Of a stretch of 64,000 bases of DNA, positions 3,515-36,107 are shown piece by piece. A program made the position numbers and the translations under genes. The notes beneath the pieces are model-generated. The model searched no databases. It saw only the letters and a program-made list of their open reading frames with translations, and had not been told where the DNA came from. This stretch comes from a virus, in IMG/VR virus record IMGVR_UViG_3300014613_000018, positions 32,001 through 96,000 of that record. The stretch is one strand, 5' to 3'. The stretch's first letter is position 1. Every line of letters begins with the position of its first letter.

Positions 3515-5077
3515 GTGAAAACAATAGAAGTACCATACTACATTGACAATCTTGATCTAAAGAAGGATAAGGCTGTGATAATGACAGATTTATGTAAAGT
3601 ACTTCGAGATGGTGGTATTCCTTGTTATTACAGTACTAAAGTAAATGATATAATTGTACAGTCAGGTAAATTAGCATACACTAAAACTGAAACAGGTTTT
3701 AACTTCATTTGGGAGAGTGAATAATGAAAGAGAAAATAATTAGAGTGTTAATGTACATCTTTACTCCTAAAAAGTATGGCATGAAGTATCATCCTTGTAT
3801 AAAGTGTAAGTGGTGTGAGTTAGATAAGAATGTGTCTCCTTATTATTTTGAGTCTCTACCTCCAGAAAGTAAAATATACTTTTATTATTGTCAAGTTCCT
3901 TTGAAACAAGTGAGAAAAGATATGCTAACAGGTTGTACACTAAAATACAATAAACCTGTAAATGAATCTATTTGTACATTTAGGATTGCTACCAATAGCG
4001 AGGATTGTGGCTATAGAGGTAAGTACTGGGAAGCTAAGAGTGCGGAATGAAATGAATGAGTTAGAAGAACCTGTGGTTGATGATACTCCACAAGATGTAG
4101 AATATTGGAAGAATGCTTTTGCCATGAAAACACAACTGCTGTATAAGGCTAGGTGCGAAAAGATAGATTACTTAATTATGTATTATAGGTTAAGAGATAG
4201 TGTTGAAGGTTTGAAATGTTCATTCTGGAGAAGGTTGAAGTTTCTGTTTACTGGTAAGATAGAAATAGAGGATTAAAAATGCCTAAATCAATGCCTCAAC
4301 CTAATTTTGAATCTTCACAGGAATATTTTAAGGAATACTGTACAGATCAGATTGAAAAGATTACTAATGAAATGGTTAGACTTGACAAACGATTGAAAAA
4401 GTTGAATATTGCAGGTAACTTGTATAAAGAGCGATTTGGAGAGAAGCTTATATTGGAGGAATCTTAGTGGAAAATTGTATAGATAAGTTACTGGAAGTGA
4501 TTAAAGTAAGAGAGAATCACACTGTAGGTAAATATCAAACTCCAGATGAATCTATTCTGAGGTATATGGATAAGCTTGAGAAACGGTATGATAAAGCAAT
4601 GGATGCCATTGTGGATGCTTCTGTTGTTGCTGAAAATGGAAGTATAGCTCCTGCAAAGCTTCAATATGCTTATTTAACTAAAATAATGGCAATTCTTGAT
4701 TATCAGAAGTGTCAAGATATTTCATTTGTTAATAATTTATCTGATTTGGAGGACTAATGTTATGTTTTAGATGTGAACATAGAGCTAAATACTTAGAAGC
4801 AACTTCAAGAGGTGACAAGTATGCACCTAGACCTAGAAGTGAATGTGGTGACATTAATAGTAGTAAAATAGGCTGTTATATGTTTGAACCTTGTCATCCT
4901 GTTGTAACTGAACCTCCTAAAGGTGCTCCAGCAGTATTAAGGTTTCAAGCACCAATGTTAGCATCAAGAGAATATGCTGTAAAAGTATTAGAACGAGAAG
5001 ATAACATTAAACTTGAAGTAATCTATGAAAATGGTAAACAAGTAGCATTAGGATGGAAGGTTAAAAATGAGTCCTGA
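3515..5077 (+). CDS. run of six coupled hypothetical proteins
   Basis: Abutting/overlapping ORFs 3515, 3724, ~4052, 4279, 4467, 4757. Confidence 0.55.
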
Positions 5078-6657: not shown

Positions 6658-7004
6658 TGAAAGGATTTGTTATTTGCAGTGTGCGAGGCCAATCAGAGGA
6701 ATATAGAGTTAAACTTGAACTGTTTGTGTCCAACAAAGAAACTCATGGTTGGGTTATCCATTTGCCTCACAGAGATACAGATCAAAAGGCTAAAGGTTAT
6801 GATATTTGTAAGCAAAATGCCGAAGCTATTAAAAACGCAGATAAAGTGTTTGTGTTTTATAATCCTGAGTCACAAGGAACTCATTTTGATTTAGGAGTGG
6901 CTTTTGCTTTGAATAAACCTATTGAAATTATTGAGTCAGTTGAATATGGAGAAGAAAAGTCTTATCCTAGAATGCTGCAAGAATGGGTAGACACTTTTGA
7001 ATAA
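6657..7004 (+). CDS. nucleoside 2-deoxyribosyltransferase-like protein
   Basis: HLPHRD...NAEAIKNAD.V...SQGTHFDLGVAFAL.KPI; likely start ATG 6657. Confidence 0.75.
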   Translation: MKGFVICSVRGQSEEYRVKLELFVSNKETHGWVIHLPHRDTDQKAKGYDICKQNAEAIKNADKVFVFYNPESQGTHFDLGVAFALNKPIEIIESVEYGEEKSYPRMLQEWVDTFE

Positions 7005-7989
7005 AATTCTTCTTATTGACGCAGATTCTACAATTCCTAATTTAGCATTAATGAAATTATCGGCTTATTACAGAGCTAAAGGATATATGATAGATTTGAT
7101 GAAATTGAATTTACCTTATTATCCCAATAAGAAAAAGAGACATCACGCTATTTCTAACTTAGGTTATGATAAAATATTCTGTAGTGTTATTTTTGAAGGA
7201 AACTTACCCTATATTCATGGTGACAACATTATATTTGGAGGTACTGGTGTAGACTTAACGACAGAGCTAGAACCTGAAATAGAGAACTTACAACCTGATT
7301 ATACTATTTATCCTGAAAATGATACTTCCTATGGCTTTATTACAAGGGGATGTATTAGGAATTGTTATTTTTGTAAAGTACCTAAAAAGGAAGGCCATAT
7401 TAGACAAGTTAATAAACCTACAGACATTATTCAACATAAAAAAGTTAAGTTCATGGATAATAATATTCTTGCACTTCCCAATCACTGCGAGATACTAGAA
7501 GAATTGGCATATTTAAAAGTTAATTGCCAGTTTAATCAAGGGCTAGATATAAGGCTGTTAACTAAAGAAAGCTCTGAATTATTATCTGCGATGAATTATC
7601 TTGGGGGTAGATATACTTTTGCGTTTGATGATAGAAAGCATATTAAAATAATAGAAAAACAAATGCAGCTATTATCTTGGAGGAGGCCATGGGAGATTAG
7701 GTTGTTTTGTTATATTCATCCTACAATGCCTATTGAGGATACCTTGTTTCGCTTAGACTGGATGAAGAAAAATAAGTGTTTACCTTATGTTATGCGAGAT
7801 ATTAGTTGTTGGGATTCGGAATACTCTCATTTTTATATCAGTCTTGCCAACTGGTGCAATCATGTACATTTATGGACTTCAATGCCTTTTGAAGACTTTG
7901 TAATTAAGAAAAATCCTCAGTTAAAGCATACTGAAAGAAATAAACAAGAAATAGAAATTTATAACACAGCACTAAAGGCCATTAGTTAG
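6997..7989 (+). CDS. radical SAM protein
   Basis: TRGCIRNCYFC; N-terminal LIDADS..PNLALMKLS; MDNNILA; FNQGLDIRL. Confidence 0.9.
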   Translation: MNKILLIDADSTIPNLALMKLSAYYRAKGYMIDLMKLNLPYYPNKKKRHHAISNLGYDKIFCSVIFEGNLPYIHGDNIIFGGTGVDLTTELEPEIENLQPDYTIYPENDTSYGFITRGCIRNCYFCKVPKKEGHIRQVNKPTDIIQHKKVKFMDNNILALPNHCEILEELAYLKVNCQFNQGLDIRLLTKESSELLSAMNYLGGRYTFAFDDRKHIKIIEKQMQLLSWRRPWEIRLFCYIHPTMPIEDTLFRLDWMKKNKCLPYVMRDISCWDSEYSHFYISLANWCNHVHLWTSMPFEDFVIKKNPQLKHTERNKQEIEIYNTALKAIS

Positions 7990-8308: not shown

Positions 8309-9421
8309 GTGAGTTTAGAAACATTTAACCCTCTATCTGTTAGTAGTAAGTTTGCTATTTGTGGCCTTCCTATTCGAGTAGATACTTATAAAACTTGCTC
8401 CTTTGGGTGTAAGTATTGTTTTGCTAACTATCGAAAAGTAATGCACACTGCTGATGAATTACAAGTAGCAAACTTAATGAGTCTGAAAAATAAATTAATT
8501 AAAGTTTATGATAAAAAGCAAATTAATCCTAATAATTTCTTAGATTTTTTATTGACAGAGAATATTACTTGGCATTGTGGTGGGATGTCAGATCCATTTC
8601 AACATGCAGAAAAAGAACTTAAAATTACATCTAAAATGCTTGAAATTACCAATGACTTTGACATATCCATTCTTTTTTCTACAAAAACGGATACTACTTA
8701 TGATTATACTCACCTAGAATCTGATTTGCATTCTTTTCAACTAAGTGTTACTTCTGCAACTACTAATACTGAGTTAGAACCTAATGTGCCTGCTCTTGAA
8801 AAAAGAATCCAGTTTTTTCAAGAACTGAAAGATAAAGGGTTTGCTGTAGGTATTAGAATCCAGCCTTTTATTCCAAGTGTTTCTAATGCTAATATAGTAG
8901 ATTTATTTAAGGAAGCGGATTATTTTTCTATTGAAGGATTAAAACTCGTGCCTCAAAATAAAGAGCAAAAACAATTTTTACTAAATACTTTGAATCTTAA
9001 ATCTACTGATTTTATTCAAAGAGGATTACTGAATCTTTGTCCAGAATTAAGGTGGACTCTTTATCAAGATTTAATTGAAAGACTACAGCATTACAATATA
9101 CCATATTCTTTAGCAGATAATGATTTGCACCATATATCCTCTAGTAAGTGTTGTTGCGGAGAGCCTTTAATTAAAAAATCAACTGAGTTCAATAATACTG
9201 CTTTATTTAAAAAATATGGCAAGTATTACACTATAGATGAAGTAAATAAGGCAATAGGAGCTTGTAAAAAGTGCAAAGTTGCATCCTTGTTTGCTTCTAA
9301 TAGGCAGGAAGAGGGAGTTACAGTTCAAGACTTTTTTAATTTAAGATTTAGTAGAAAATCTTCTCCCTTTTCTCCAAAATTTATGTTCTATCCTCAACCT
9401 AAATTGAACTTATTTAATTAA
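8309..9421 (+). CDS. radical SAM protein, spore-photoproduct-lyase-like subgroup
   Basis: DTYxxCSFGCKYCFA, GGMSDPFQ, STK, LEPNVP...R, RIQPFIP. Confidence 0.85.
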   Translation: MSLETFNPLSVSSKFAICGLPIRVDTYKTCSFGCKYCFANYRKVMHTADELQVANLMSLKNKLIKVYDKKQINPNNFLDFLLTENITWHCGGMSDPFQHAEKELKITSKMLEITNDFDISILFSTKTDTTYDYTHLESDLHSFQLSVTSATTNTELEPNVPALEKRIQFFQELKDKGFAVGIRIQPFIPSVSNANIVDLFKEADYFSIEGLKLVPQNKEQKQFLLNTLNLKSTDFIQRGLLNLCPELRWTLYQDLIERLQHYNIPYSLADNDLHHISSSKCCCGEPLIKKSTEFNNTALFKKYGKYYTIDEVNKAIGACKKCKVASLFASNRQEEGVTVQDFFNLRFSRKSSPFSPKFMFYPQPKLNLFN

Positions 9422-31976: not shown

Positions 31977-32014
31977 GAAAAGAGAGAGAGAATGTAAAGT
32001 AATCCCCCTCTCTA
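31977..32014 (-). terminator. terminator after tRNAs
   Basis: AGAGAGGGGGA/TCTCTCTCTCT-TTTC on - strand. Confidence 0.7.
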
Positions 32015-32018
32015 ATGT

Positions 32019-32092
32019 TGGCTGGGGCTAGAAGAATCAAACTCCTGTGACAAGGGCCAAATCCTTGCGTTCTATCACTGAACTAAGCCCCT
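32019..32092 (-). tRNA. tRNA-Gln(TTG), atypical
   Basis: Cloverleaf GGGGCT/AGCCCC, anticodon arm CAAGG-ATTTGGC-CCTTG, G73, encoded CCA; A1.A72 mismatch, T loop TTTGATT. Confidence 0.75.
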
Positions 32093-32292: not shown

Positions 32293-32619
32293 TTAACCAT
32301 TATAGTAAGAATCTTCAATGAATCCTACTTGCCTACCTTCTTTTAGTTCAAACTTAGCATTAACTAGTTCAGTTACTCTTGCAATAAACTGATTTTTAGT
32401 TTCATCCATACCCATACCTTCAACATCAATATAGAAGGCTACGGTATCTTCATTCCAATTACAAAAAATATCTAAACCTGTATTTAAGCCTATACCATTA
32501 TTAGTATCAACTTTTGTAATATCAGTACCTCTTACTTTAGCAATATCTTCCCCCCAAACACCTACTCCAAAGAAACTTGAAGTTGAACTGTTACTCACAT
32601 GACCATACCTTATTTTCAT
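32293..32619 (-). CDS. HVSNSS-motif protein
   Basis: MKIRYGHVSNSSTSSF. Confidence 0.8.
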   Translation of the reverse strand: MKIRYGHVSNSSTSSFFGVGVWGEDIAKVRGTDITKVDTNNGIGLNTGLDIFCNWNEDTVAFYIDVEGMGMDETKNQFIARVTELVNAKFELKEGRQVGFIEDSYYNG

Positions 32620-32633
32620 TTAATTTTCCTTTC

Positions 32634-32888
32634 TTAACACTCATGTGCATAATAGTTTTGAGGAATATTTGCTTCCTTTAGCAAACTCATGTCTAGTATG
32701 CTGTGTTGGGCATCCCCCATAATAAATTGACCATTACTACTAATCCACAAATATCCATCATAAGCTTCAGCATTATGATCTTCTACCATTTTAGTAAGTA
32801 TATCCTTCTGTTCTTGTGACAGACCGTCTAGCCTACACACAAACGAGCTTGTTGAACTGTTACTTACATGCCCTGTTCTTATTTTCAT
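32634..32888 (-). CDS. HVSNSS-motif protein
   Basis: MKIRTGHVSNSSTSSF. Confidence 0.8.
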   Translation of the reverse strand: MKIRTGHVSNSSTSSFVCRLDGLSQEQKDILTKMVEDHNAEAYDGYLWISSNGQFIMGDAQHSILDMSLLKEANIPQNYYAHEC

Positions 32889-32900
32889 AATTTTCCTTTC

Positions 32901-33500
32901 TTAATGATGGCTTATACGAATATTAGCTACATTATGCCAATGACTGCCATGCTCAAGTTGACAACCTAATCTTCCATCTTCATCTGCAAAGACAGCATAA
33001 ACTATATGCTTACCTTCAAACTTAGGTCTTTGTTTTTCCATGTATTCTTTAGCTAAATTTAGAGCTATTTGGTTCCACTTAATTTCGTACTTTTCACATG
33101 CTTCGTGGTTATTCCACGCAGGTAAATTATCATAGTAATCTTGATTCAACTTTTGATTAGAGTATATCTGCCGCCAACCAATTTCAATCATAAGTTCTTC
33201 ACAATTTAAGATGTCCTCAATAGTATTTATTGAATAATTTTTCTCTTCATATTCTCCTTTCTCTTCATTCCAGCATTCAGTCTCGTACTCTTCACAAATA
33301 CCTTGCTTAAAGCCTTCACACAAGTCTTCTATTCTAAAAGGGTCATCCCAATATTCTCCTGAAACCCAACCTTCAGTATTGCTTCCAGCATTGTGAAATA
33401 CTTGTTCCTTAATTGCTTCTACCGAATCCAGAGGCTTATCAGTAGCGATAATGAATGAACTGGAGCTTGAATTGCTCACATGTCCAGCACGAATTTTCAT
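32901..33500 (-). CDS. HVSNSS-motif protein
   Basis: MKIRAGHVSNSSSSSF. Confidence 0.8.
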   Translation of the reverse strand: MKIRAGHVSNSSSSSFIIATDKPLDSVEAIKEQVFHNAGSNTEGWVSGEYWDDPFRIEDLCEGFKQGICEEYETECWNEEKGEYEEKNYSINTIEDILNCEELMIEIGWRQIYSNQKLNQDYYDNLPAWNNHEACEKYEIKWNQIALNLAKEYMEKQRPKFEGKHIVYAVFADEDGRLGCQLEHGSHWHNVANIRISHH

Positions 33501-33501
33501 T

Positions 33502-34557
33502 TTAGTTTATCTCCTTAAATATTAGACACTGCCTACAACCATTACAATCCTTACTTGTAATAGACTGTTCTCTCCAATTGTTTAACCTCTCACTGAACCA
33601 AATATCCTTTACAAAGTCCTCACATTCAAGAACGCTTATTCCTTTTTCCCAACCTTTCTCATTTTCACAGAAGCTACAAGGAAAATATTCTCCATGAACA
33701 TTTACATATGCACTGAACATTCCAAAGCTCTCACAACTTTCAGCAGCTTGTATCATTTCAGTTTTCTTTTCCAAAGGAATACTCATATCCATTACAGCTT
33801 TAACATACTTAGGAGCACTACAGCTATCAAAACCATAAGGTATCTTGTAAGTATCGCAGTAGCCTATTAGCTTACTAAACTCAACTTGACTAAGACTATG
33901 AAACTTACCTTTAGCTCTACCTTTAGGCTTTACTCCGAGGAATACTACTGCATTAAGATCATTAAGCCTTTCATCGGTTCTTATATCATTCAAAACTTCA
34001 TACACAAAACTTCTACTCTCTTCACTAACAAATAGGTGAATATTAGTCTGTGTAACTCCTCTGTCTAGCATCATTTTAATAGCATTATAAGCTATATTCT
34101 TGTCTCTCTGGTAGACACTGATTGCACAAGCTCCTATCAATGGTGCAACTTCATCAGCAATTTCCGGTGTAAGGTCTACTCCTGACATTGTAAAGTTAGG
34201 TATAATACCTCTAGCTCTACTTTCCTTTAGCATGGGAATAAAATCAGGATTAGCTTGAACATCTGTAATTCCGAAAGCAATACTATCAAGATTCTTAGAG
34301 AATTTACTAACAATCTTTTTGAAAGTATCAAGAGTCATGTGAGTACCATTCTCAGCAGTGTTTCCTTTGTAGCAGAATGGACAGTTCATACTACAATCCC
34401 CAACAGATACCTCTAAATCTAATATTTCAGGGCCTACAGGAGAGAATTGAGGGTCTTCCTCTTTAGTCTTTCCCCAACGAGCCATGAAACCACTTTCAGG
34501 TTCAAACACTCTGTTGTAATGAAATGGTTCTGTTATATGCACTCTTTTAACTTTCAT
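33502..34557 (-). CDS. radical SAM protein with SPASM/twitch-like C-terminus
   Basis: CSMNCPFCY; SCES...YVNVHG..FPCSFC; terminal CNGCRQC. Confidence 0.9.
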   Translation of the reverse strand: MKVKRVHITEPFHYNRVFEPESGFMARWGKTKEEDPQFSPVGPEILDLEVSVGDCSMNCPFCYKGNTAENGTHMTLDTFKKIVSKFSKNLDSIAFGITDVQANPDFIPMLKESRARGIIPNFTMSGVDLTPEIADEVAPLIGACAISVYQRDKNIAYNAIKMMLDRGVTQTNIHLFVSEESRSFVYEVLNDIRTDERLNDLNAVVFLGVKPKGRAKGKFHSLSQVEFSKLIGYCDTYKIPYGFDSCSAPKYVKAVMDMSIPLEKKTEMIQAAESCESFGMFSAYVNVHGEYFPCSFCENEKGWEKGISVLECEDFVKDIWFSERLNNWREQSITSKDCNGCRQCLIFKEIN

Positions 34558-35026
34558 TTTCAGTATCTCTTTTGTAATAATCAGAGATAGGTTCTGTTCT
34601 CATAATTGGGCCTTTTTGTTCAAGTTCTTCTAATAGCCTATCGTTACGACCTTTCCAAATTAGTGATTGTCCAGTGTTTCGTACAAAAATTATATCTTGA
34701 GACTTACCATCCCAAAACACTTCCTCAGAACCATAATGACAACACCCGTGAAACGGGATTTTATATTGAATTAGAATAGTAAATACTTCATCGTGGTTTA
34801 TTAGATGGTGATATGCAAAATTATGTCCGTCTTCATCCCACCGATCAATTCCTGCTTCTATCTGCTGAGGAAATGAAACCCAAGTTCTCTTAAACCCTGT
34901 TGTTTCAAGAGCATATATCTGTTCGTCTGTAAGGTGTGGTTCTCTGCTCGAGTCTAGCCAATCACAATAGTTTATTATAAAACTTGAAGTACTACTATTG
35001 CTGACATGACAAGCTCTAGTTTTCAT
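34547..35026 (-). CDS. HVSNSS-motif protein
   Basis: MKTRACHVSNSSTSSF. Confidence 0.8.
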   Translation of the reverse strand: MKTRACHVSNSSTSSFIINYCDWLDSSREPHLTDEQIYALETTGFKRTWVSFPQQIEAGIDRWDEDGHNFAYHHLINHDEVFTILIQYKIPFHGCCHYGSEEVFWDGKSQDIIFVRNTGQSLIWKGRNDRLLEELEQKGPIMRTEPISDYYKRDTENES

Positions 35027-35059
35027 TATTTCATTTTCCTTTCAGTTTGAGTTTCAATG

Positions 35060-35088
35060 AATATACATCTTAAAACTTAGATTGTCAA
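35060..35088 (-). promoter_or_regulatory. sigma70 promoter of HVSNSS/radical SAM operon
   Basis: TTGACA-17-TATATT followed by AAACTGAAAGGAAAATG. Confidence 0.8.
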
Positions 35089-35384
35089 GTGCCTATTCAC
35101 CACAGCTACAACAGTCAGTATCTACAGGAAAAGGTTGACTATCATATTTAATATCTTCTTTAGTAGGCTCTTCTACACAGTCTAGTCTAACAGGCTTAGT
35201 ATTTCTCACAATTACAGTACCATCAATCTCAAGTGAGTCTATTAATTGATGAATTAGTTCTAATGTAAAATCTACTGAAGCAACCTCTGAGTCTAAATCT
35301 AAAATAAATTCTTGTATCTCTGGTTCATCTAGTATATCAGCTATATTGTCAACTAAATTTTCTGTATCTAGTGTACTCCAAATA

Positions 35385-36107
35385 CTAATTTTCATTATTC
35401 TCCTTAACTTTACAAACTTCACCAGTTACTATTCTCAGTTTATGAGGTTTGTTGTCATACAAGTCTCTAGGATTCTTAAACTCCATAGGGTCTCTATTAT
35501 CAAACTCTTGTGAATATATTTCTAATTTAATTCTGCGTTCTGTCTCCATTAAGTTAAGTAGGTTCCAACAAGCAGCAGCTAAATGGTCTTCATCATACTC
35601 ACCCATTTTCCAAAGCTCAATGTGCCTTCTAGCTGAGTCATAAAAATCAATTGTATACATTCCTTTCTTCCAATTTTCTTCTGCCATTTTAGGATTATCA
35701 GCATCACTATATTTGACTCTACCAGCCTCATAATGTTTAGCTATCCTCTCAAGTGAATGAGAAGGAATCAAACTGTACATACCTTTACCTACTCTTTTAT
35801 CTCTCACTGCACCACTAGGATACTTAGTCCTATCACCTGAATCCTTAATTGTACTATATACTTGTTCTTGTTCCTTTGTTGGTCTAGGTAACTCATCTAT
35901 CATAACACTCATTGGAGCTACAAACTCTAGGTGTTCAATTCCAATATCTCTAAATATCTTATTAACATACCCACCAGTCAATATTGCCTTAGCAGGAAAC
36001 TTAACCCTAACCGTGTGCTTATCTATAATTGCCGTTATTGTTCCTTCTCTATTTACAAGATTAGGAAATGCTTCACCTACATACTTAACTCTGTCATTAA
36101 TTTCCAT
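35385..36107 (-). CDS. dATP/dGTP diphosphohydrolase-domain (DUF5664-like) protein with N-terminal SH3/KOW-like extension
   Basis: KDSG.R..YPSGAVRD...GKG.Y.LIP, HYE.G..KY, ENWKKG, DSARRH, DEDHLAAACWN. Confidence 0.8.
   Translation of the reverse strand: MEINDRVKYVGEAFPNLVNREGTITAIIDKHTVRVKFPAKAILTGGYVNKIFRDIGIEHLEFVAPMSVMIDELPRPTKEQEQVYSTIKDSGDRTKYPSGAVRDKRVGKGMYSLIPSHSLERIAKHYEAGRVKYSDADNPKMAEENWKKGMYTIDFYDSARRHIELWKMGEYDEDHLAAACWNLLNLMETERRIKLEIYSQEFDNRDPMEFKNPRDLYDNKPHKLRIVTGEVCKVKENNEN

Follow-up and report, generated by a model that had tools for sequence, protein, structure and literature searches.

In the KpAvs2 operon of Klebsiella pneumoniae, an Avs2 sensor-nuclease is encoded together with a radical SAM protein, Avap1, and a small partner protein, Avap2, which was linked to DUF6375 by HHpred (Bechon et al. 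2024, PMC11564622). Avap2 binds the sensor constitutively, the radical SAM partner was dispensable against one phage and is needed only against some phages, and the functions of both partners were left open. Three other kinds of system also bear on the locus described here. Anaerobic sulfatase-maturating enzymes (anSME/AtsB) are radical SAM enzymes with auxiliary clusters that act on a serine or cysteine in a short motif, (C/S)-x-(P/A)-x-R, near the N-terminus of whole folded sulfatases, so that one enzyme serves many different clients. Triceptide (three-residue cyclophane) synthases such as FxsB, XyeB, GrrM, and the His-x-Ser system are radical SAM/SPASM enzymes that act on aromatic-x-X motifs in short peptides with a leader and repeated C-terminal motifs. 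In RiPP systems such as the prochlorosins or those with SkfB- and SuiB-type radical SAM maturases, one maturase is paired with many precursors that share a leader, usually along with a protease and/or exporter and a leader-recognition (RRE) domain.

We analyzed a 64,000-nucleotide stretch (the window; positions 32,001 to 96,000 of the IMG/VR virus record IMGVR_UViG_3300014613_000018) that carries a radical SAM gene packed among four genes for small acidic proteins. The five ORFs lie on the minus strand, with spacings of an 11-nt overlap followed by 1, 12, and 14 nt:

35060..35088, minus strand: sigma70-like promoter sequence (TTGACA-17-TATATT), just upstream of the first gene
34547..35026, minus strand: tagged protein 1 (159 aa, pI 5.2), beginning MKTRACHVSNSSTSSF
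33502..34557, minus strand: radical SAM enzyme (351 aa) with a SPASM/twitch-like C-terminal part
32901..33500, minus strand: tagged protein 2 (199 aa, pI 4.8), beginning MKIRAGHVSNSSSSSF, with a conserved C-terminal [SA]D..G...LEHG..F...H..IS.H motif
32634..32888, minus strand: tagged protein 3 (84 aa, pI 5.1), beginning MKIRTGHVSNSSTSSF
32293..32619, minus strand: tagged protein 4 (108 aa, pI 4.6), beginning MKIRYGHVSNSSTSSF, with a conserved DDETG.QFK motif

The four non-enzyme proteins all start with MK[TI]RxxHVSNSS[ST]SSF, and the observation made in the preliminary description, that a radical SAM gene is accompanied by four otherwise unrelated proteins with one shared N-terminal tag, is confirmed. 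A degenerate DNA pattern for HVSNSS matches 4 times in the window against 0.13 expected, none of 100 shuffles reached 4, and there are no further copies in the window or in the 114.5-kb record. The codons for the tag differ synonymously between copies, as had been noted: Arg4 is AGA, AGG, or CGT, and Ser11, 12, 14, and 15 switch between AGY and TCN. Conservation is therefore at the peptide level, and a DNA-level explanation such as recombination or a regulatory repeat is rejected. The claim that the proteins diverge completely after the tag is confirmed at the profile level. An hhalign comparison of the 199-aa family with the 108-aa family aligns only columns 1-20, and with the tag removed the best probability over all pairs of ten tagged families is 12%. 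The preliminary description also held that one sigma70 promoter drives all five genes. Sigma70-like sites with 11 of 12 matches to the consensus lie at 35088-35060 and, just after the last gene, at 32284-32257, which fits one transcription unit, although these are consensus matches only and the total count of promoter-like sites in the region is not above chance.

The enzyme belongs to the radical SAM superfamily. It matches Pfam Radical_SAM (PF04055, E 1.3e-7, 32.4 bits against a cut-off of 29.5) and phrog_7293 (E 8e-78), and its CX3CX2C motif (C55, C59, and C62) is invariant in 74 sequences. Four more Cys (C246, C275, C294, and C344) are invariant in the same set, which is enough for one auxiliary cluster. 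The full SPASM motif, CX9-15GX4C ... CX2CX5CX3C ... C, has seven Cys, and twitch is a shorter form with one cluster. The first part of the SPASM motif is present as C275-x13-G289-x4-C294, whereas the PF13186 match for the window protein is below the cut-off (19.0 bits against 21.5, E 0.0018); a plasmid homolog described below scores 27.3 bits, above it. The nearest solved structures are those of SkfB, a peptide thioether synthase (E 0.0016), and BtrN, a twitch dehydrogenase that matches the C-terminal part (E 0.007). Beyond the generic radical SAM core, the enzyme hits no NCBIfam model for a sulfatase-maturating, triceptide, or other named peptide maturase at E ≤ 1. Among the clients, as we term the tagged proteins, Pfam, NCBIfam, and PADLOC searches returned nothing, the 199-aa protein matches phrog_7397 (E 5e-9), and a search of the ESM Atlas gave only viral hypothetical clusters.

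To determine whether the tag and this enzyme clade are linked, we examined their co-occurrence in both directions. Of 80 IMG/VR loci with a relative of the enzyme, 76 carry 1-10 tagged genes within 10 kb, nearly all on the enzyme's strand, and 15 of 22 loci picked through a tagged protein have the enzyme within 10 kb. A blastn search of the region against cultured phages found nothing, but a protein-level search found the enzyme in 173 cultured T4-like phage records and the KP27 client of the 199-aa type in 175, with the same genus tallies, although in T4-like phages such as KP27 the clients lie about 20 kb from the enzyme. These records include T4-like phages of Klebsiella, Enterobacter, Cronobacter, Citrobacter, and Escherichia, as well as Pseudotevenvirus records; in KP27 the enzyme is KP27_176, and the RB43/RB16 group of E. 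coli phages carries a homolog. A profile of the tag hits 25,693 protein clusters at 50% identity. The clients in the window are not a random set. In 114 enzyme loci, the BLAST clusters of the 159-, 199-, 84-, and 108-aa proteins occur in 33, 53, 51, and 62 loci, respectively; they belong to the four commonest tagged families found beside this enzyme, and 12 loci carry the same quartet. The "variable set" of the preliminary description is therefore overstated. A search of the 114 loci for another conserved partner found only generic nucleotide-metabolism neighbors and no conserved protease, transporter, or PqqD-like gene.

A short, strictly N-terminal tag on otherwise unrelated small proteins of T4-like phages resembles the capsid-targeting sequence shared by T4 internal proteins, and the tag could in principle be a sorting signal of this kind or an N-terminal degron, read by other machinery and unrelated to the enzyme. 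We consider this very unlikely because the tag also occurs in bacterial plasmid operons that have no virion genes, its linkage to one enzyme family is strong in both directions, and no protease gene is conserved nearby.

Tag residues K2, R4, S9, N10, S11, S12, and S15 are invariant in 53 tagged proteins and near-invariant in 293 tags, the tag always starts at Met1, and 148 of the 150 best database hits begin with it. In the wider system, the tag reads M-K-x-R-x-G-(F/H/Y)-V-S-N-S-S-S-S-S-F. The GFVSNSSSSSF form mentioned in the preliminary description is real and is the majority form, with Phe at position 7 in 279 of 293 tags. His at this position is rare (1 of about 285 tags elsewhere) but marks a whole clade, in which all 4-5 clients have His7, a two-nucleotide change from Phe, across proteins down to 40% identity; orthologs of the 84-aa client occur in two all-His metagenome contigs (L095 and L096 among our loci). 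The enzyme of this clade has specific substitutions at otherwise conserved positions, for example Q92S, where Q is found in 99% of Phe-type enzymes; T91D and Y112E are also clade-specific. This concerted change points to one common reader of position 7. The suggestion that the uniform His reflects tag-enzyme co-evolution is, however, only half right. The clade is one lineage (n = 1), and two loci (L074 and L098) mix His and Phe tags beside one Phe-type enzyme; two further loci (L099 and L100) also mix tags, but no enzyme lies on those short contigs. Strict co-evolution is therefore not required and is rejected as a rule.

AlphaFold models of two clients suggest how the tag could be presented. 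In the 199-aa protein (pLDDT 91.5), residues 1-10 are modeled at about 45, and in the 108-aa protein (pLDDT 72.7) strands are predicted at residues 2-4, 7-10, and 13-23. In both models, residues 1-10 are left at low confidence and residues 13-20 form a core β strand, so that the head of the tag is free to be bound. The core strand partly satisfies a condition that had been set in advance as counting against the tag hypothesis, namely that the motif is just a core strand of one shared fold. Fold searches with the two models found nothing convincing: Foldseek against the PDB gave a best E of 0.79, BFVD a best E of 0.14, and VIA-align best Z scores of 4.6 and 4.2 for the 199-aa and 108-aa models, respectively.

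These models raise the possibility that the tag is mainly a structural element, an N-terminal hairpin plus the first strand of one ancient, extremely diverged fold, such that all tagged proteins would be distant paralogs and the enzyme a neighbor by common descent in one mobile module that does not read the tag. Half of the tag is a core strand, so part of its conservation could be structural, and both models have a similar order of elements (β, α, β-β, α, β). Within loci, variable tag positions are also somewhat homogenized, with identity at position 5 of 0.32 within loci against 0.14 between loci, a pattern that recent duplication would give. We nevertheless regard this reading as unlikely. 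No pair of the ten families shows profile similarity once the tag is removed, the invariant K2, R4, and S9-S12 lie in the low-confidence, unpacked head, a purely structural strand would not keep Ser-Asn-Ser-Ser invariant across 25,693 clusters, and the concerted Phe-to-His change in all clients of one lineage needs a common reader.

The system is not confined to phages. In three of three alphaproteobacterial plasmid loci examined, a STAND gene, a tagged protein, and the enzyme lie in a row, like the published KpAvs2-Avap2-Avap1 operon. The STAND protein has SMEK_N and NACHT domains and matches the PADLOC Avs2 models (E 8e-27) in the one locus scanned, the tagged protein is 131-132 aa long and starts with MK[IL]K[LM]DFVSNSSSTSF, and the enzyme is 29-32% identical to that of the window. 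This layout, together with the properties of KpAvs2, leaves possible, though less likely in our view, a docking role without modification. The tagged proteins would then be interchangeable adaptor or regulatory subunits that use the N-terminal hairpin to bind the radical SAM enzyme and steer it to another substrate, such as a nucleic acid, a nucleotide, or a host protein, or that bind a third partner such as a STAND NTPase, with the tag itself chemically unchanged. The location of the phage loci among nucleotide-metabolism genes and the frequent co-occurrence of the four commonest families, as would suit subunits of one assembly, are consistent with this view. On the other hand, the SPASM/twitch radical SAM enzymes nearest in sequence act on peptides or small molecules directly, near-invariance of seven polar residues in a loose segment is more than a docking strand usually needs, and no candidate third substrate or partner gene is conserved beside the phage loci.

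The interpretation offered in the preliminary description, a phage post-translational modification system in which a portable tag is the recognition or modification site that activates a variable set of effector domains, is partly supported. The functional link between the tag and this radical SAM clade is supported, whereas modification, activation, and an effector role of the proteins remain inferences. With moderate confidence, we propose that the locus is the phage form of a widespread two-part system, consisting of a radical SAM enzyme with one putative auxiliary iron-sulfur cluster and a set of folded, mostly acidic client proteins that share only the tag. In this view, the second half of the tag, from about residue 13, is the first β strand of each client's own fold, and the first 10 or so residues (MKxRxG[F/H]VSN) stick out as a flexible hairpin that the enzyme binds and probably modifies covalently by radical chemistry. 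The most likely chemistry would be either oxidation of one of the invariant serines (Ser9, 11, or 12), as in formylglycine-forming or BtrN-type dehydrogenases, or a cross-link from aromatic residue 7 to Ser9, the omega-x-X pattern of three-residue cyclophanes, although Leu or Met at position 7 in 3 of about 285 tags does not fit an obligatory aromatic cross-link. The window carries the minimal core set, namely the four commonest client families, in a rare lineage where residue 7 is His in every client. Our data establish the genes, peptide-level selection on the tag, enzyme-tag co-occurrence in both directions, the lack of homology between clients beyond the tag, and a bacterial Avs2-linked counterpart; binding, modification, its site, and the biological role are inferred. 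The role is probably host takeover or counter-defense, because the clients are small acidic proteins encoded among early or nucleotide-metabolism genes. A more speculative extension, which we consider unlikely on present evidence, is that the phage arrays of tagged acidic proteins are matured mimics of the bacterial Avap2-type regulator that hold Avs/STAND immune sensors, or other host targets, in check, forming a counter-defense arsenal built on a shared and chemically activated handle that would be present on more than 25,000 protein clusters.

If the enzyme really modifies the tag, this would be a very common protein-level radical modification that has not been characterized, acting on whole folded proteins rather than peptides and shared between phages and bacterial NLR-like immune operons. 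The all-His clade offers a natural comparison of specificity between Phe and His tags and their matching enzymes, and the system could also explain what Avap1 and Avap2 do in KpAvs2 defense. To our knowledge, no paper explains it. Literature searches found no paper with SNSSSSSF or related strings in a relevant context and none on a phage radical SAM/SPASM tag system, the KP15/KP27 genome paper does not mention the enzyme, and the "FxSxx plus radical SAM/SPASM" system of Kaur et al. 2020 concerns C-terminal peptides of other proteins.

Compared with the described systems, the tag shares with triceptide substrates an aromatic-x-X pattern, F/Y/H-V/I-S at residues 7-9 in about 99% of 293 tags and H-V-S in the window, although this is a pattern match only. 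No curated triceptide maturase model matches the enzyme, and the substrates would be predicted folded proteins with a single site seven residues from the start rather than leader-plus-core peptides. As in the anSME systems, one enzyme would serve many folded clients, but the tag has no Pro/Ala-x-Arg after any Ser, no sulfatase-maturase model appears among the NCBIfam hits, the enzyme has four invariant auxiliary Cys rather than seven or eight, and the clients have no Pfam sulfatase domain. As in RiPP systems, one enzyme is paired with a conserved N-terminal sequence and hypervariable remainders encoded in tandem, and SkfB is the nearest solved sequence relative; the "cores" here, however, are proteins of 84-199 aa that are predicted to fold, without a conserved protease, transporter, or RRE/PqqD-type domain in the loci. 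Pfam DUF6375 (PF19902), the family linked to Avap2, gave no hit on 53 tagged proteins, on the plasmid protein, or in 403 genomes and records, and the KpAvs2 paper does not mention a tag. The pairing of a radical SAM enzyme with a small partner protein is common to the published KpAvs2 operon, the plasmid loci, and the window; the window operon has no STAND or Avs2 gene, carries four clients rather than one, and lies in a phage, with a rare histidine variant of the tag.

The observation set out in the preliminary description, a radical SAM/SPASM enzyme encoded together with four unrelated proteins that share one N-terminal tag, holds. Five ORFs lie on the minus strand of the window and are packed tightly, with an 11-nt overlap followed by gaps of 1, 12, and 14 nt, and two tRNA genes lie directly downstream of them:
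34547-35026, minus strand, tagged protein of 159 aa
33502-34557, minus strand, radical SAM enzyme of 351 aa
32901-33500, minus strand, tagged protein of 199 aa
32634-32888, minus strand, tagged protein of 84 aa
32293-32619, minus strand, tagged protein of 108 aa
32122-32208, minus strand, tRNA-Leu(taa), downstream of the operon
32019-32092, minus strand, tRNA-Gln(ttg), downstream of the operon

A sigma70-like site with 11 of 12 matches (35088-35060) precedes the first gene, and a second (32284-32257) follows the last gene and leads into the two tRNA genes. Although these sites are consensus matches only, the arrangement fits one transcription unit. The gene just upstream of the operon (35385-36107, minus strand), which overlaps a 109-aa ORF at 35093-35422 by 38 nt, has a dATP/dGTP diphosphohydrolase N-terminal domain (PF18909, E 4.7e-16). 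Such enzymes accompany 2-aminoadenine (Z) DNA in some phages, but the record holds no PurZ-like adenylosuccinate synthetase (PF00709).

The four non-enzyme proteins start MKTRACHVSNSSTSSF, MKIRAGHVSNSSSSSF, MKIRTGHVSNSSTSSF, and MKIRYGHVSNSSTSSF. A degenerate pattern for HVSNSS matches four times, against 0.13 expected, and the 114.5-kb record holds no other copy. CheckV estimates this record at about 70% complete, and IMG/VR classes it as linear. Its last 15-16 bases (positions 114486-114501) nevertheless repeat its first bases (positions 1-16; AACCATCATCCCATC), which may be an assembly overlap of a circular or permuted genome. The copies of the tag use different codons, in that Arg4 is AGA, AGG, or CGT and several serines switch between AGY and TCN. 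Selection therefore acts on the peptide, as the preliminary description had stated, and these synonymous differences exclude a DNA-level repeat. No paper in the literature that we could search describes the tag.

The enzyme passes the Pfam Radical_SAM cut-off, has a sub-threshold SPASM match, and belongs to phrog_7293 (E 8e-78). In an alignment of 74 relatives, C55, C59, and C62 (CX3CX2C) are invariant, as are four further cysteines (C246, C275, C294, and C344), which include C275-x13-G-x4-C294, the first part of the SPASM motif. This is enough for one auxiliary cluster, so the enzyme is SPASM/twitch-like and not a full seven-Cys SPASM enzyme. Its nearest solved relatives by profile are SkfB (E 0.0016) and BtrN (E 0.007); higher-ranking pentatricopeptide rows are repeats of 5-bit matches and are spurious. 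No curated NCBIfam maturase family matches beyond the generic core. A second, unrelated radical-SAM-like gene in the window (6997-7989, plus strand; phrog_9298, E 6e-56; no Pfam hit) is followed by a protein with a weak DUF1848 match (8309-9421, plus strand), and no tag lies nearby.

To determine whether the enzyme and the tag are linked beyond this locus, we searched in both directions. Among 80 IMG/VR loci with a relative of the enzyme (36-56% identity), 76 carry 1-10 tags within 10 kb, almost all on the enzyme's strand and mostly downstream. The tag always begins at the start codon. In 293 distinct tags, K2, R4, S9, N10, S11, S12, and S15 are nearly invariant, whereas position 7 is F in 279, Y in 5, L in 2, M in 1, and H in 1; the remaining five matches are chance hits without a start codon. 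In the other direction, 451 viral stretches match MKxRxG[FH]VSN, and of 22 loci picked through a tagged protein, 15 have the enzyme within 10 kb. A 35-column tag profile finds 25,693 representative proteins at E <= 0.001 among 1.84 billion, and of the 150 best, 148 start with the tag. The best hits of this profile (database proteins P0006-P0012 and P0015) are single called proteins with two tags, the second of which is internal and directly follows the first client domain. These are either read-through or fused gene calls, or real tandem fusions in which the tag is not N-terminal.

In cultured phages, the enzyme occurs in 173 records (Klebsiella 111, Enterobacter 20, Cronobacter 14, Citrobacter 11, Escherichia 9, and others), and a tagged protein of Klebsiella phage KP27 occurs in 175 records with the same genus tallies. 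In KP27, the two tagged genes (KP27_124 and KP27_130; NC_020080.1, 65.5-69.9 kb) flank a 738-aa hypothetical protein (KP27_128) and lie about 20 kb from the radical SAM gene KP27_176, all of them annotated as hypothetical. Poor adjacency in some phages therefore does not break the link at genome level.

We collected 318 distinct tagged proteins (hereafter clients), which fall into 112 BLAST clusters. With looser clustering, the four proteins of the window belong to the four commonest families, found in 62, 53, 51, and 33 of 114 enzyme loci, and twelve loci carry all four. The window therefore holds a core quartet, not an arbitrary set. Profile-profile comparison aligns only the first 20 columns between the 199-aa and 108-aa families, and with the tag cut off, no pair of ten families exceeds 12% probability. 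The clients have no Pfam, NCBIfam, or PADLOC family. They are acidic, with a median pI of 4.8, and 84% are below 5.5 against 46% of neighboring ORFs. No other gene family, such as a protease or transporter, is conserved beside the enzyme, where the neighbors are nucleotide-metabolism genes. In some viral loci (6-7 loci each), a protein kinase-like gene and a PP2C phosphatase gene lie a few kb downstream of the tagged array (at about 14.6-17.5 kb in loci L016 and L017), which may bear on a serine-rich tag or may be coincidence.

AlphaFold models built from family alignments reached a pLDDT of 91.5 for the 199-aa protein and 72.7 for the 108-aa protein. Both put residues 2-4 and 7-10 in a small, low-confidence hairpin (in the 199-aa model, the mean pLDDT of residues 1-10 is about 45), and both make residues 13-20/23 a strand of the core. 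The tag as modeled thus has two halves, an exposed head that holds most of the invariant residues and a structural tail. The preliminary description had named a motif that is just a core strand of one fold as evidence against its own reading. Neither model matches a known fold convincingly, and because it cannot be said whether the families share a fold, that condition is only partly fulfilled. A purely structural reading of the tag is one of the weaker alternatives.

The histidine at position 7 sets the tags of the window apart from the majority form. Relatives of the 199-aa protein down to 40% identity all have G-H-[VI]-S, and three metagenome contigs (L094-L096) repeat the gene order of the window with 3-5 tags that are all His and an enzyme that is 69-70% identical to that of the window. 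His7 is therefore a trait of a clade. It arose in each of several non-homologous client families, and each change needs two nucleotide substitutions, which argues for one common reader of position 7. The enzyme of this clade differs at sites conserved elsewhere, namely T91D, Q92S (Q in 99% of Phe-type enzymes), Y112E, and F25M. This is a single lineage, however, and two loci (L074 and L098) mix His and Phe tags beside a Phe-type enzyme, while two others (L099 and L100) also mix tags. The co-evolution of tag and enzyme proposed in the preliminary description is thus suggested but not proven.

The best-supported reading of these data is that the enzyme recognizes the exposed head of the tag and probably modifies it. 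The preliminary interpretation, in which a portable tag is the recognition or modification site of the enzyme, is therefore partly supported: the linkage of enzyme and tag and the selection on the peptide are established by the sequence comparisons, whereas recognition, modification, and its chemistry are inferred. Two chemistries would fit the sequence. The first is oxidation of an invariant serine, by analogy with anSME and BtrN. The second is a cross-link from residue 7 to Ser9, following the aromatic-x-X rule of triceptides, with FxS in most phages and HxS here. The enzyme belongs to neither family by HMM, however, and the rare Leu or Met at position 7 argues against an obligatory aromatic link. 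A sorting-signal reading of the tag is, like the structural one, weaker, whereas a docking role without chemistry is a serious rival, given what is published for the bacterial protein Avap2 described next.

To gain insights into whether the pair also occurs in bacteria, we searched with tblastn and found homologs of the enzyme (29-32% identity over 96-99% of its length) on Agrobacterium, Rhodobacter, and Rhizobium plasmids. In each of the three loci that we examined, the enzyme is directly preceded by a 131-132 aa protein that starts MK[IL]K[LM]DFVSNSSSTSF, and before that lies an SMEK-domain protein of about 880 aa. In the one locus scanned, this protein has SMEK_N and NACHT domains and matches the PADLOC Avs2 models (E 8e-27). 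In two of the three cassettes (plasmid loci L142, at 4237-4602, and L143, at 4213-4578), an extra untagged 121-aa protein sits between the STAND gene and the tagged protein, which makes a four-gene unit. This is the layout of the published KpAvs2-Avap2-Avap1 operon (PMC11564622), and homology to its Avap proteins is inferred from architecture only. In that system, in which neither partner has a known function, the radical SAM protein Avap1 is needed against some phages, and Avap2 binds the sensor, the finding that makes docking without chemistry a serious alternative for the tag.
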